Part shown: positions 1 to 37,792 of the stretch, piece by piece | How the letters are laid out: each line of letters starts with the position of its first letter | Numbering within the stretch: position 1 is the stretch's first letter | Source: Candidatus Helarchaeota archaeon | GTDB taxonomy: Archaea; Asgardarchaeota; Lokiarchaeia; Helarchaeales; RDOG01 | Direction of reading: 5' to 3' | Assembly (NCBI GenBank): GCA_019058315.1 | Contig: JAHPZH010000002.1 | Coordinates: 1 to 64,000 of the forward strand | Length of the DNA stretch: 64,000 nt | Program-made: the position numbers and the translations under genes | Notes under the pieces: model-generated | Databases searched by the model: none | What the model saw: only the letters and a program-made list of their open reading frames with translations | Told to the model about the DNA's origin: nothing

Positions 1-388
1 GCCACGGCAGGTCAGTATGCCCCGAATCCCCCGGGCTACACGCGGGCTGCAATGATGGGTACAATGAGTTGCGATCTTGAAAGGGAAAGCTAATCTCGAA
101 AGCCCACCGTAGTTGGGATCGTGGGCTGTAACTCGCCCACGTGAACATGGAATCCCTAGTAATCGCGTGTCACCATCGCGCGGTGAATACGTCCCTGCTC
201 CTTGCACACACCGCCCGTCGCTGCACAAGCGGTCAAGGGTGTAAAGATTTTCCCCTTCCCGCTGCAGAACTGAATTTGCTTTGGGCGAGGCCCCGTCGTT
301 GATTCGGCGGGTTCGAACCTGAGGTAGGTAAGGGGGCAGAAGTCGTAACAAGGTAGCCGTAGGGGAACCTGCGGCTGGATCACCTCCT
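1..388 (+). rRNA. rrs: 16S rRNA, 3' portion (5' part lies outside the window), interrupted by a 43-nt intron
   Basis: Universal motifs GCACACACCGCCCGTC (204-219), AAGTCGTAACAAGGTAGCCGTAGGGGAACCTGCGGCTGGATCACCTCCT (ends 388); archaeal-type GTCCCTGCTCCTTGCAC. Confidence 0.98.
227..269 (+). other. Archaeal BHB-type intron (ORF-less hairpin, 43 nt) in 16S rRNA helix 44
   Basis: UCG(218-220)/UGA(271-273) exon helix; CUGC(221-224)/GCAG(264-267) 4-bp central helix; 3-nt bulges ACA(225-227) and AAC(268-270); intron stems AGCGG/CCGCU and AAGGG/CCCUU. Cleavage after the 2nd bulge nt restores GCUGCAC|CUGAA. Confidence 0.88.
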
Positions 389-447
389 AAGAAAGCTGGG
401 GATGACTCCAGCTGGGGGTCGTCTATTCTGGAGATGTTAGTTTGAGC
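351..447 (+). repeat. Direct repeat copy 1: 16S helix 45, anti-SD and 3' trailer
   Basis: Matches 5074-5169 with 5 substitutions and a 1-nt indel. Confidence 0.95.
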
Positions 448-642
448 GTATTATACTATTTTTTTAATTCTTTATCTTTTTTGAATCATTATTTCAAATA
501 GATCCTAGCATTCATCGATTTTATTTTGTTATATATATTAGAAAATGACAAAATGCGCAAATTAGGGAGGGGAGGAATCAAAAGATAAAAATATTAGAAT
601 TGCCATAAACATATTAGAATCATAAGGGATGTATAACAAGGA

Positions 643-804
643 TTGTTGAAAAATCTTGATAAATTAACAGATAAGGAGAAGATGAGAAGACTCATCATAA
701 TATCTAAGAGAAGTGAAGGAAAAGATTTTCTCCCACATATCATAAGTCGGAATTTTAAAGATATTCCAGTCGATTTTATCTCTGAAATGTTAAAATGGGA
801 TTGA
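643..804 (+). pseudogene. Remnant of a helical-repeat protein related to 1445..4189
   Basis: Translates ...LIIISKRSEGKDFLPHIISRNFKDIPVDFISEMLKWD*, like repeat LVKLSKNVKGSKILARALSKSFEKVPTYFRNELIR; in-frame TAA just upstream at 634. Confidence 0.45.
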
Positions 805-1055
805 ACTCAAACATATTCTATTTTTTTCCTAAAAAATACTTGAATATATTAAAAAAAGAAGTAAATCCATTCCTCAAATAAACACCAGAGTAATATAAAT
901 AATAAAATGAGTCACTTAAATGATTCTTCATCTGTTTTATTCTTGGTATTAATCGAATTTTCAATTAAAAATTCAGTTGAATTATAATCAACCATTATAA
1001 ACCAAAAGGTATACTTTTTCCATTGGAAAAAGTAAAAATGAGAATGATTTAAAAA

Positions 1056-35468: not shown

Positions 35469-35528
35469 TTTTTTTTGTAATTACCAGATTCTAGATTAGA
35501 AACAATGGTTAAAATCAAAAAAGATATA

Positions 35529-36644
35529 TTATTCTATTATCTTTTTATGTTTTTTCATTCTTTTACCTGCTAGATATAGTATACAGCAACCTGGGCAGAT
35601 AGACATTAATTTGTGTTGATTCATATAAGAACGGAATATTCGATATTTTTCCCCGTTCCAAATCTCTTCGAAACTATGCTCGTGTAAATTACCCATCACC
35701 AAATCATAAAAAATATGACATGGAGCCAAATCTCCTGAGGCTGTAATATCGAGTCCTACCCAAGGAACTGGGCAAGAACGGTATTTATCGGTCATTTCGT
35801 CCCAATTAGCCCCGAGATAAGCTTTAAGATTTTCAGGAGAGAAGGTGGGTGGTAAAAATAATGTAAATTTTCCGAGTTTTTTTAATTGTTTATTTACTTT
35901 ATTTGCTTGCCGAGCTAGCTCTTTTGTGTCCATTTTATTAAAATATTCAGGAGAACGAACAAATCCTCGCCAATATTCTTCGCTTGTAATCCCTAATTCG
36001 GATCTAAGCATCTCTGCATAAGCAATTCCCATCTTTTTAGTAATAAAATTCTCCATCTGAATTGTTATCCAATTGATAGCTGAAAGATCAAGATCTTTAA
36101 GGAAAAATTGCTCTATATATCGGTAATTTTCAGGAGTCACTGTATAAATGATGCTAATTAAGGGACTTTGTTTTCCAGAATCTTGTTTTTCTTGCTGAAG
36201 GGCTTCAATACCTTCAATAGCCTTACTATAGCTACCATTCCCACGTTGCGAGTCATTTACTTCACGAGGACCGTCAATGGAAACTCTTATAGAATCGAAT
36301 CCAGTTTGAACAAGCATAGCTGCGTGTTTTTTCAAGAGTGTACCATTTGTTGGAGTATCTAAAAATGATCCTGCATCCTTCATTTCTCGAATTATTTCTT
36401 CCAAATGGGGATGCATAAGAGGTTCACCACCAAAAAAACTATAAGAGGGTTTGGCTGGGGCTAAATCGTGAACAACTTGTTTAATTAAATCAAATTCTAG
36501 AATTAATGGTTTTTTATTAGATTCGGGATTAGAATAACAACCTTTTTCACCCCAAAAATAACACATTTTACAACGAAGATTACAAGTCTCCGTAAGTTGG
36601 ATTGCAAGATTTTTAGGTAATTTGACTTTTTTATTTTCTGTCAT
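35529..36644 (-). CDS. Radical SAM/SPASM-twitch protein
   Basis: CNLRCKMC, GGEP, CPVPW, GDLAPC, GNL, CPGC. Confidence 0.93.
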   Translation of the reverse strand: MTENKKVKLPKNLAIQLTETCNLRCKMCYFWGEKGCYSNPESNKKPLILEFDLIKQVVHDLAPAKPSYSFFGGEPLMHPHLEEIIREMKDAGSFLDTPTNGTLLKKHAAMLVQTGFDSIRVSIDGPREVNDSQRGNGSYSKAIEGIEALQQEKQDSGKQSPLISIIYTVTPENYRYIEQFFLKDLDLSAINWITIQMENFITKKMGIAYAEMLRSELGITSEEYWRGFVRSPEYFNKMDTKELARQANKVNKQLKKLGKFTLFLPPTFSPENLKAYLGANWDEMTDKYRSCPVPWVGLDITASGDLAPCHIFYDLVMGNLHEHSFEEIWNGEKYRIFRSYMNQHKLMSICPGCCILYLAGKRMKKHKKIIE

Positions 36645-36682
36645 ATTATTTCCGTAAAATTAAATTTTAACAAATTAATATG

Positions 36683-37792
36683 TTATATAGTTTCTAAAAA
36701 TGCTTCTATTCTTGTTCTAATTTGTTCTAAATCGCTTTGGGCATATTCTCTAACAACGGTTAGAACGGGGAATTCTAATTTTTCTTGAAAATACTCTTTA
36801 AATGGATAATTTTTCAGTTGATAAGGATCACAAAATTTCAAGTTGTAATTAATAATACCTAGAGCATTATAAGCTTCGTAAATACCTTTAATAAACTCAA
36901 ATCTTGATGAATCTGGATACATTCTTGCACAAGGTATTTTGGTTAAATATCTTTCAGTTAGGGATTGAATTGGATCGCTATTCATTACGACATTATCCCA
37001 ATAATATCTCATTCCACTGCAAATATCATCTCCAACAACTAAACCATCTAAACTTTCAATAAATTCTACTATATGATCCCCAAATGCAATATTACTTCCA
37101 GAAATAATGACTCTTTTACCATTTAAATTTCGTCTTTTATTTACTAATTGAGGAAAAATCTGACGTAACTTTTGAAGCATCTCTTGTTTTTCATTAAGAA
37201 AAGTCTCTTGGATCAGATATTGACTCTCAGTTCCAGAAATTGGTGGATTATTATTCATTCTTAACTCGTTTATTTTTTTTAACTCCGTCCTCAACTCATT
37301 ATACAATCTTATCGAATTTAAAATATCATCATTTGATATTTTTGAACCAGTAAAAATTTCAATATTTTTCTTAAAAAGTAAAATTTCTTTATAGAAATAT
37401 TTCATTGATGGAGCATCTGTTTTTCTGGGAGTGTCTAAATTAATAACTGGAATTTTTAGATATTTTGAATAATCTTGAATTGACTCCATGCCGTTACAAT
37501 AATTTCCGGTTATCAACAAATCACATTGCGAATAAAGTGGGTGATTATCCAATAAAAATCCCAATGTTGATCGGGCATAGGGACAAGTCCCGACCGACAT
37601 ATATTCTCCACCTTTTAAAACCATATCTTCAACCCCCCCTAAATTTAATCTTAAAGGAAATGCTTTTGAGGCATATATGATTTCCTCAGGGACAAATGAG
37701 CATGTAAAGCCTATAATTTTAATTCCTTCCTTTTTCAAGGTTCGGATTTTTCCAACATATTCATTTAATGATGGCTTTTCAATTATAGGCAA
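36683..37792 (-). CDS. 2-hydroxyacyl-CoA dehydratase D-component family subunit
   Basis: VPEEIIYA, CPY, KFCDP, QIRTRIEAFLE. Confidence 0.9.
   Translation of the reverse strand: MPIIEKPSLNEYVGKIRTLKKEGIKIIGFTCSFVPEEIIYASKAFPLRLNLGGVEDMVLKGGEYMSVGTCPYARSTLGFLLDNHPLYSQCDLLITGNYCNGMESIQDYSKYLKIPVINLDTPRKTDAPSMKYFYKEILLFKKNIEIFTGSKISNDDILNSIRLYNELRTELKKINELRMNNNPPISGTESQYLIQETFLNEKQEMLQKLRQIFPQLVNKRRNLNGKRVIISGSNIAFGDHIVEFIESLDGLVVGDDICSGMRYYWDNVVMNSDPIQSLTERYLTKIPCARMYPDSSRFEFIKGIYEAYNALGIINYNLKFCDPYQLKNYPFKEYFQEKLEFPVLTVVREYAQSDLEQIRTRIEAFLETI

Follow-up and report, generated by a model that had tools for sequence, protein, structure and literature searches.

Same-strand copies of gene ends flank accessory genes in an Asgard archaeal genome: a possible footprint of recombinase-independent gene capture

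The window analysed here comprises the first 64 kb of contig C5 (JAHPZH010000002.1) of Candidatus Helarchaeota archaeon, whose genome measures 5.8 Mb (5.79 Mb) in 12 contigs, cited below as C1 to C12, with a GC content of 30.5%. Three loci in the window, at the 16S rRNA gene, a ferredoxin gene and a dehydratase gene, share one architecture. An intact gene is followed by cargo of 4.6, 1.0 and 2.6 kb, respectively, and then by a displaced, diverged copy of the gene's own 3' end on the same strand. An earlier note, made from the sequence alone, had described the three direct repeats and their common polarity; all three are present in place, and each occurs in exactly two copies in the genome. The gene identities at the three loci are backed by Rfam and Pfam. 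With a genome-wide total of 24 scars over 5.79 Mb, three or more in a single 37-kb stretch have a Poisson probability of 5e-4. Assembly error was considered but does not fit, because the fragments sit inside long contigs, carry substitutions and stop codons of their own and occur as two genome copies only.

The 16S locus is composed of the following features.

1..388, plus strand: 3' part of the 16S rRNA gene, model positions 1135-1478 (Rfam RF01959, 275.6 bits).
351..470, plus strand: repeat copy 1, the functional copy by leader complementarity, with helix 45 (h45), the anti-Shine-Dalgarno end and the 3' trailer half of the processing stem.
471..5073: 16S islet (cargo), 4.6 kb, GC 0.29, with three open reading frames (ORFs).
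1056..1289, minus strand: histone-fold ORF, 77 amino acids (aa) (CBFD_NFYB_HMF, E 9e-7).
1445..4189, plus strand: 914-aa repeat protein, its N-terminal third with five paralogues in the genome.
4303..5028, minus strand: 241-aa PD-(D/E)xK-like ORF, last gene of the islet (motif and fold model).
5074..5193, plus strand: displaced, diverged copy of the 16S 3' end and trailer (repeat alignment).

Contig C5 starts within the 16S gene, whose 5' part is found on contig C12 (C12:50-897, equal to model positions 4-828). The repeat spans the last ~38 nucleotides (nt) of 16S, where the Rfam match ends at 388, plus the trailer. Its two copies are 94% identical over the first 97 nt (351-447 versus 5074-5169) and 89% identical over 122 nt (351-470 versus 5074-5193). 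The leader on C12 is perfectly complementary to the trailer of copy 1, with a duplex energy of -67 kcal/mol compared with -54 for copy 2. The displaced copy differs by one C-to-T change in the h45 region, and it mismatches the leader at two positions. The repeat stops where the leader-trailer processing stem stops. The sole 16S gene detected in the assembly sits in two pieces at the ends of two contigs, and neither piece contains model positions 829-1134, which correspond either to an assembly gap or to an insert within the gene.

The 16S islet has no DNA-level match among 40 relatives. Its histone-fold ORF bears a basic N-terminal extension of ~20 residues. The first ~300 residues of the 914-aa protein form a domain that has no Pfam family match and recurs in five more genome copies at 46-61% identity (C7:142709, C7:21016, C3:869757, C3:319680 and C3:516742). 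The 241-aa ORF ends 35-45 nt from the displaced 16S copy and has no other copy in the genome. Its family is tiny, with 9 distant relatives among 1.84 billion representative proteins, and shares a PDIDV...E-x-K motif in which PDIDV and K86 are invariant and E84 is kept in 8 of 9 sequences. Sequence searches of Pfam, PHROGs and the PDB gave no match. Folding from the single sequence was uninformative (predicted local distance difference test score, pLDDT, 33). The model built from the family alignment has a predicted template-modelling score of 0.60, a mean pLDDT of 60 and a core pLDDT of 70-90. It matches restriction-endonuclease-fold proteins only (XisH, EndoMS/NucS, MspJI and PaqCI) at a probability of 0.85-0.97 and E-values of 0.01 or weaker. 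The modelled protein probably adopts a PD-(D/E)xK nuclease fold with an alpha-beta-beta-beta-alpha-beta core, and a nuclease activity is predicted.

The ferredoxin locus lies on the minus strand and is read here from its intact gene.

9656..9925, minus strand: FixX-like 2x[4Fe-4S] ferredoxin gene, intact (Pfam Fer4 families).
9644-9764, minus strand: repeat copy 1, the last 109 nt of the gene and 12 nt downstream (repeat alignment).
8647..9643, minus strand: cargo, a single alpha/beta-hydrolase gene (8672..9466) with its upstream region (Pfam Abhydrolase_1).
8526..8646, minus strand: displaced ferredoxin 3' end, in frame (repeat alignment).

The two copies (9644-9764 versus 8526-8646) are 92% identical over 121 nt. 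Five of the eight coding differences are synonymous, and the fragment bears one TGG-to-TAG nonsense change. The hydrolase cargo has a GC content of 0.357 compared with 0.312 for its flanks. Positions 8656-9550, which hold the hydrolase and 84 nt upstream of it, share 85% DNA identity and 78% protein identity with a genome of another family (G006:C12:2125-3017), where the hydrolase sits between different, unrelated genes. Conserved genes of the two genomes match at ~66-70%, and other homologues of the hydrolase reach at most 72% DNA identity. These values suggest that the hydrolase is a recently transferred single gene.

The ferredoxin is conserved beside a flavin adenine dinucleotide (FAD) protein (9933..11609) in many genomes. 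The FAD-protein/ferredoxin pair (FixC/FixX-like; window 9656-11609, minus strand) has 72-79% DNA matches in 48 of 135 sister-family genomes and was not found among six genomes of the window's own order. The target operon itself may therefore have been acquired. An attempt was made to polarise the ferredoxin differences with orthologues. The displaced copy looked ancestral at 7 of 8 sites with 17 sister-family orthologues, a result unsupported by 47 more diverse ones, and the argument was dropped because synonymous sites are saturated and AT bias confounds the comparison.

The dehydratase locus, also on the minus strand, has a two-gene cargo.

36683..37792, minus strand: HGD-D dehydratase subunit gene (B1), intact (Pfam PF06050).
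36654-36738, minus strand: repeat copy 1, the last 56 nt of the gene and 29 nt downstream (repeat alignment).
34020..36653: cargo, two genes.
35529..36644, minus strand: radical SAM/SPASM gene (Pfam).
34146..35468, plus strand: 440-aa gene with no family match.
33935..34019, minus strand: displaced dehydratase 3' end, stop codon kept (repeat alignment).
32790..33896 and 31483..32793: paralogous HGD-D operon B2-A2, 39 nt after the displaced fragment.

The core of this repeat (36683-36738 versus 33964-34019) is 86% identical over 56 nt, and the whole 85 nt are 74% identical. The 440-aa cargo protein is represented in 6 of 160 genomes of the class, by partial matches only and at no more than 47% identity; homologues of the radical SAM protein are likewise patchy among relatives. 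B2-A2 is paralogous to the HGD-D pair of the intact gene at 40% identity. Relatives hold B2-A2 without A1-B1, as judged from 1.5 kb upstream.

At the end of the window, a ~1.5-kb unit is present in three tandem copies of ~67% identity from 62722 to 64000 and on to C5:67407 (direct repeats 62722-65807 versus 64283-67376 and 62741-64255 versus 65884-67407), which points to a tandem array of paralogous genes.

For a genome-wide scan, 5,269 genes were called with a simple codon-usage caller. Probes of 150 nt from the 3' and the 5' end of every confident gene were compared with the 10 kb on either side by BLAST in 40-kb chunks, and only matches in intergenic DNA of at least 42 bits were counted. 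A second list, of isolated short direct repeats, was compiled without reference to genes. Repeat pairs were then re-aligned to give a clean class, from which segmental duplications with similarity extending more than 400 nt past the stop codon were left out.

The earlier note had proposed that nearby same-strand repeats would be enriched at gene 3' ends across the genome, and the search of 5.8 Mb was positive, with the predicted polarity. Copies of 3'-end probes lie downstream of their gene in 37 cases (34 unique loci) and upstream in 5 (34:5, p=2e-6). Copies of 5'-end probes lie upstream in 18 cases and downstream in 7 (p=0.04). Among the gene-end copies in intergenic DNA, 67 are on the same strand as the gene and one is on the opposite strand (p=5e-19). 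The bias to gene ends and the 3'-downstream polarity thus stand, but the 5' analogues show that the bias is one towards keeping the intact gene, not the mark of a strictly 3' mechanism. The list compiled without reference to genes points the same way. Its gene-versus-intergenic pairs involve a 3' end in 11 cases, a 5' end in ~4 and an internal segment in 1. Internal sequence is ~10 times commoner than ends, so this ratio amounts to a strong end bias.

The clean class comprises 22 protein-gene loci, the 16S locus and a tRNA-Asn locus, 24 in all, or about 4 per Mb, compared with about 6 per Mb before the matches were cleaned. At the protein-gene loci, the repeats are 39-521 nt long (median 94) and 69-93% identical. 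They begin abruptly inside the gene and end between 1 nt short of the last base of the stop codon and 55 nt past it. The cargo has a median of 1.3 kb and usually consists of one or two genes. The tRNA-Asn gene (C3:627505-627581) is matched 4.8 kb downstream by a partial copy of its 3' end, 77 nt long and 92% identical, and the cargo between them is one 1,563-aa fn3/Ig-domain gene with no integrase; the locus spans C3:622648-627581. The visible cargo of all loci totals ~56 kb, or ~1% of the genome. The earlier suggestion of a routine route of gene gain therefore receives moderate backing only: the pattern does recur at 24 loci, but its visible contribution is small.

Some 3'-downstream matches turned out to be plain segmental duplications that take in the next gene (C1:405321, C2:28623, C3:721939, C5:718389 and C7:239307) and were rejected as scars. 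The five matches of wrong polarity are two paralogue remnants beside the gene, one tandem array, one mostly non-coding match and one leucine-rich-repeat gene. With regard to the earlier idea that such capture could help to explain the large, mosaic genomes of Asgard archaea, another large genome of the Lokiarchaeia class (G168, a single 6.04-Mb contig) was passed through the same pipeline over its first 1.6 Mb. It gave four 3'-end copies downstream and two upstream, with no clear polarity, at a density ~40% of that in the present genome, a difference that is not significant (p=0.09).

The targets are ordinary genes. They include those for the FixX-like ferredoxin, HGD-D, IlvE, an amidase, a B12-radical SAM protein and an AMP-binding enzyme of the acyl-CoA synthetase type, together with 16S rRNA and tRNA. 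The cargo proteins are heterogeneous, with LVIVD, DUF285, FG-GAP repeat, zinc-ribbon membrane, GNAT-like, PRTase-CE, hydrolase and radical SAM proteins among them and many that belong to no family. The GC content of the cargo departs from that of its flanks in both directions, by a mean absolute difference of 0.039 compared with 0.025 in random gene-bounded segments (p=0.0017). It shows no correlation with the direction of the GC/AT differences between the repeat copies (rho 0.02). The cargo is thus compositionally atypical. Among relatives it is patchy, as the earlier note had expected of the enclosed genes.

No junction motif was found at the four junction types of the 24 loci. No position exceeds 0.6 bit, no k-mer is common to the junctions, and the shared 6-mers are only AT-rich words. 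The junctions also lack the common att core expected of elements that use one integrase, terminal inverted repeats and any terminal motif. Pfam scans of the window cargo and of 20 further cargo proteins revealed no recombinase, and an integrase is absent from all 24 loci. Inside the window there is no Phage_integrase, TnpB zinc-ribbon domain, Cas1 or DDE_Tnp_1 match. The statements of the earlier note that the targets share no sequence and that no recombinase is near are borne out, with the caveat that a probable PD-(D/E)xK nuclease is the last gene of the 16S islet. In the genome as a whole, Phage_integrase gave two matches and DDE_Tnp_1 none; six TnpB genes and five giant Cas1-fusion ORFs were detected. 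The two Phage_integrase (PF00589) matches, at C5:822820 and C7:268825, are both far from, and outside, any scar. The giant Cas1-domain ORFs are 1,474-2,772 aa long (C6:307676, C7:35450, C11:726840, C1:396293 and C11:840577), and two of the five adjoin gene-end repeats (C7:30373 and C1:394746).

The differences between the two copies of a repeat were examined by a simple Nei-Gojobori count of the nonsynonymous to synonymous ratio (pN/pS) over 16 ungapped loci and 591 codons, with a bootstrap over loci. They were compared with a simulation of decay that started from the real sequences and used a Hasegawa-Kishino-Yano-type (HKY-type) model, an intergenic composition of GC 0.21, kappa 1-4 and omega 0-0.15. 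The observed pN/pS is 0.38 (bootstrap 0.27-0.47). An identical duplication followed by neutral decay of the fragment gives 0.50-0.74, with lower 2.5% bounds of 0.40-0.59. The fragments hold 7 in-frame stops, compared with 14-18 in the simulations. GC-to-AT and AT-to-GC differences are balanced at 125:126, compared with about 1.4:1 when simulated. All three measures lie outside the simulated decay, which argues that a good part of the divergence was acquired while both copies functioned as coding sequence. The pattern fits donor and recipient alleles from different lineages that diverged under selection; old paralogues would give the same result in this test.

The place where similarity ends is also informative. 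It lies a median of 13 nt past the stop codon, in old spacers with a median length of 87 nt and up to 474 nt, and it lies as close to the stop codon in young pairs of at least 88% identity. An end at the functional unit would be explained by a donor and a recipient that share the gene and not its neighbourhood. It would not be expected of staggered cuts at random places in the spacer.

The scars have the layout expected of homology-anchored capture: conserved resident sequence stands on both sides of the insert, in copies on one strand, and the intact gene occupies the anchor side. We give about an even chance to the reading that the scars arose by recombinase-independent, homology-anchored insertion of DNA from related lineages, with copy 1 and the cargo of donor origin. 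A piece of donor DNA that bears the end of a conserved gene, G, together with the donor's own downstream gene or genes, X, would enter the cell and pair with the resident G through host homologous recombination. The non-homologous end of the piece could be joined illegitimately to itself, and the resulting circle would then integrate by a Campbell-type single crossover. Alternatively, it could be joined to the chromosome inside the resident G, in what is known as homology-facilitated illegitimate recombination (HFIR). The product would be an intact G ending in copy 1, then X, then the resident 3' end as a promoter-less orphan (copy 2), and then the old downstream gene. Only products with G intact would survive. 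This would force the polarity, make internal-only fragments rare and allow for mirror-image cases at 5' ends.

The earlier note had named the same two routes, single-crossover circles and HFIR of relatives' DNA. The polarity, the absence of an integrase and the allele-like divergence speak for that proposal, but no donor, empty site or circle was found. Several further points weigh against homology-anchored insertion. No donor with G next to X was found among 40 relatives compared by DNA at the three regions; for the ferredoxin followed by the hydrolase, none was found in 400 Asgard genomes or 80 metagenome loci, the available relatives being too distant. More than 50 genomes and the 80 metagenome loci carry the FAD-protein/ferredoxin pair without this hydrolase next to it. 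No empty site was found in relatives either, because those available are too distant, the nearest genomes being ~65-75% identical in DNA. Neither a protein search with IlvE nor an exact look-up of the ferredoxin protein nor a metagenome scan with the neighbouring FAD protein returned a usable donor or empty site, and synteny beside the target genes is not kept among relatives. The gene calls come from a crude caller, the pN/pS argument from a simple count and an HKY-type simulation, and the polarisation of the ferredoxin by orthologues is not robust. HFIR has been demonstrated in bacteria only, and the literature searches gave no archaeal report. Lastly, some repeats, such as one of 46 nt at 83% identity, are too short and too diverged to be the recombining tract. 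For this reason, a Campbell crossover within the repeat is disfavoured, and the anchor may have lain further upstream, as in HFIR.

Four other explanations were weighed. The scars could be the remains of decayed or trans-mobilised site-specific integrative elements, similar to cis-mobilizable elements (CIME-like), that once carried an integrase and a replacement 3' end and have since lost all but attL, attR and the one or two cargo genes between them. Integrase-borne 3'-end replacement yields the same architecture, one locus is a tRNA gene (the 77-nt partial copy of tRNA-Asn 4.8 kb away), and gene ends borne on an element would also diverge in coding fashion. However, none of the 24 loci keeps an integrase, and the two Phage_integrase matches in the genome are remote from the scars. 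With no common core or motif at the junctions, each target would need an integrase of its own. The cargo, mostly a single ~1-kb gene, and the repeat length of 39-521 nt also fit such elements poorly, and we consider this origin unlikely.

The fragments could instead be remnants of tandem paralogues or segmental duplications, in which a diverged copy of G was mostly deleted or overwritten and its 3' end was kept, perhaps for the signals of the next gene. The genome is rich in local same-strand duplications (~2,500 direct matches versus ~250 inverted). Plain segmental duplications were met among the 3'-downstream matches, two of the upstream cases directly adjoin the gene, and paralogues would likewise diverge as coding sequence. 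Under this explanation, the loss of either copy would be equally likely, yet the ratio is 34:5 overall and about 21:1-2 at loci with cargo. The fragments are end-anchored (11 with the 3' end versus 1 internal), and the cargo is unrelated to what follows the fragment. A second 16S gene and a second tRNA-Asn gene would have to have been lost. These points make paralogue remnants improbable as the general source of the scars.

For the 16S locus only, a homing-type element was considered, in which the 241-aa PD-(D/E)xK protein would cleave 16S alleles that lack the cargo, and repair of the break would bring in the islet and, with it, a replacement 16S end. The position of the ORF next to the displaced copy, the invariant motif of its small family and the exclusive match of its model to restriction-endonuclease folds fit this idea. 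On the other hand, no fold match is better than E 0.01, the mean pLDDT is only 60, and the genome holds no second copy of the gene. The sole readable context among the 9 distant relatives is that of the closest homologue, on a 1.9-kb contig without rRNA, which is uninformative. The protein could equally be the product of a defence gene, and the other loci have no nuclease. We regard homing at 16S as quite improbable.

Lastly, an integrase of a transposition-like or Cas1-like kind, working in trans, could have made staggered cuts 40-500 nt apart and so left very long target-site duplications. This is very improbable: direct repeats do flank the insert, and the genome does hold five giant Cas1-fusion ORFs, one of them abutting the scar at C7:30373, and six TnpB genes, but both copies would then be resident and initially identical, whereas pN/pS, the number of stops and the missing AT drift fall outside the simulation of that model, the insertion points lie 4-18 nt past the stop codon even at loci that offered 145-474 nt of free spacer, and the repeats lack the fixed, ruler-like length, the identity at insertion and the terminal inverted repeats or common motifs of transposon or casposon insertions.

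Returning to homology-anchored insertion, a broader form of it can be put forward tentatively, as possible and rather doubtful. Any conserved gene end, those of the sole detected 16S gene and of tRNA genes included, might serve as a landing pad for a relative's neighbouring gene in a general recombinase-free capture route. The end-cargo-end units might be excised as circles and use the same homology to insert into other genomes, and would then be self-propagating cassettes that need only host recombination. If homology-anchored insertion is correct, homology to conserved genes is all that single accessory genes need to enter an Asgard genome, with no integrase, transposase or att site involved. 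The scars would then be tangible, countable traces of horizontal gain in a lineage with large, mosaic genomes that bear on models of how eukaryotes arose. Such traces are easy to screen for and could be used in other genomes to map gene gains and to date them. As the evidence stands, the share of the genome that they explain is small, and the mechanism is the inferred part.

Full-text literature searches returned no description of the gene-cargo-displaced-end pattern in archaea. Several known systems resemble it in part. Integrase-mediated replacement of 3' ends is known from phage e14 at icd and from integrative elements at tRNA and tmRNA genes. There, too, the order is intact gene, element and displaced 3' end, and the element brings a diverged, functional replacement end. 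Those elements encode a tyrosine integrase and use a defined att core, however, and neither is present at any of the loci described here. In fungal mitochondria, mobile endonuclease ORFs are associated with C-terminal gene duplications, for example at atp6 of Allomyces. A short insert likewise supplies a new end for the gene, and the resident end persists downstream as a pseudogene. The process is driven by a homing endonuclease in the insert, whereas only the 16S islet has a candidate nuclease here.

HFIR has been described in transformable bacteria (de Vries & Wackernagel 2002, PMC122324; Prudhomme et al. 2002, PMC122325) and in E. coli conjugation (PMC3240628). As proposed here, one homologous anchor and one illegitimate joint capture foreign DNA beside a conserved gene, with no site-specific recombinase. 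HFIR differs in being known from bacterial laboratory selections and in being usually described with a deletion of recipient DNA; as far as the literature was searched, it is not documented in archaea or as a recurrent natural genome signature.

Displacement of C-terminal gene ends has been described at two kinds of bacterial toxin locus. Homologous recombination with circular intermediates was proposed for rhs genes (Jackson et al. 2009, PMC2935791), and HFIR for effector-immunity modules of type VI secretion systems (T6SS) (Kirchberger et al. 2017, PMC5361080). In these systems and in contact-dependent inhibition (CDI), incoming DNA recombines with the conserved part of a resident gene and adds new material without an integrase. 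The old 3' end is pushed downstream as a silent orphan, where it gathers stop codons and frameshifts. In rhs, CDI and T6SS loci, however, the repeated part is a conserved core, the displaced tips differ, and the genes are bacterial polymorphic toxin genes under diversifying selection. At the present loci, it is the terminus of the gene itself that is repeated, a separate gene has been added, and the host is an archaeon. Their targets are ordinary metabolic genes, a tRNA gene and the sole 16S gene detected. None is a polymorphic toxin gene with a conserved core, variable tips and arrays of dissociated tips, and each locus has one fragment. The closest known counterparts are thus the C-terminal displacement of rhs and T6SS genes and the end replacement of the e14/icd type, from which the scars differ in their targets, the repeated terminus, the single-gene cargo, the lack of an integrase and the archaeal host. 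If the proposed mechanism holds, C-terminal displacement, so far described at toxin loci of bacteria, would extend to archaea and there to ordinary genes as well as those for rRNA and tRNA.

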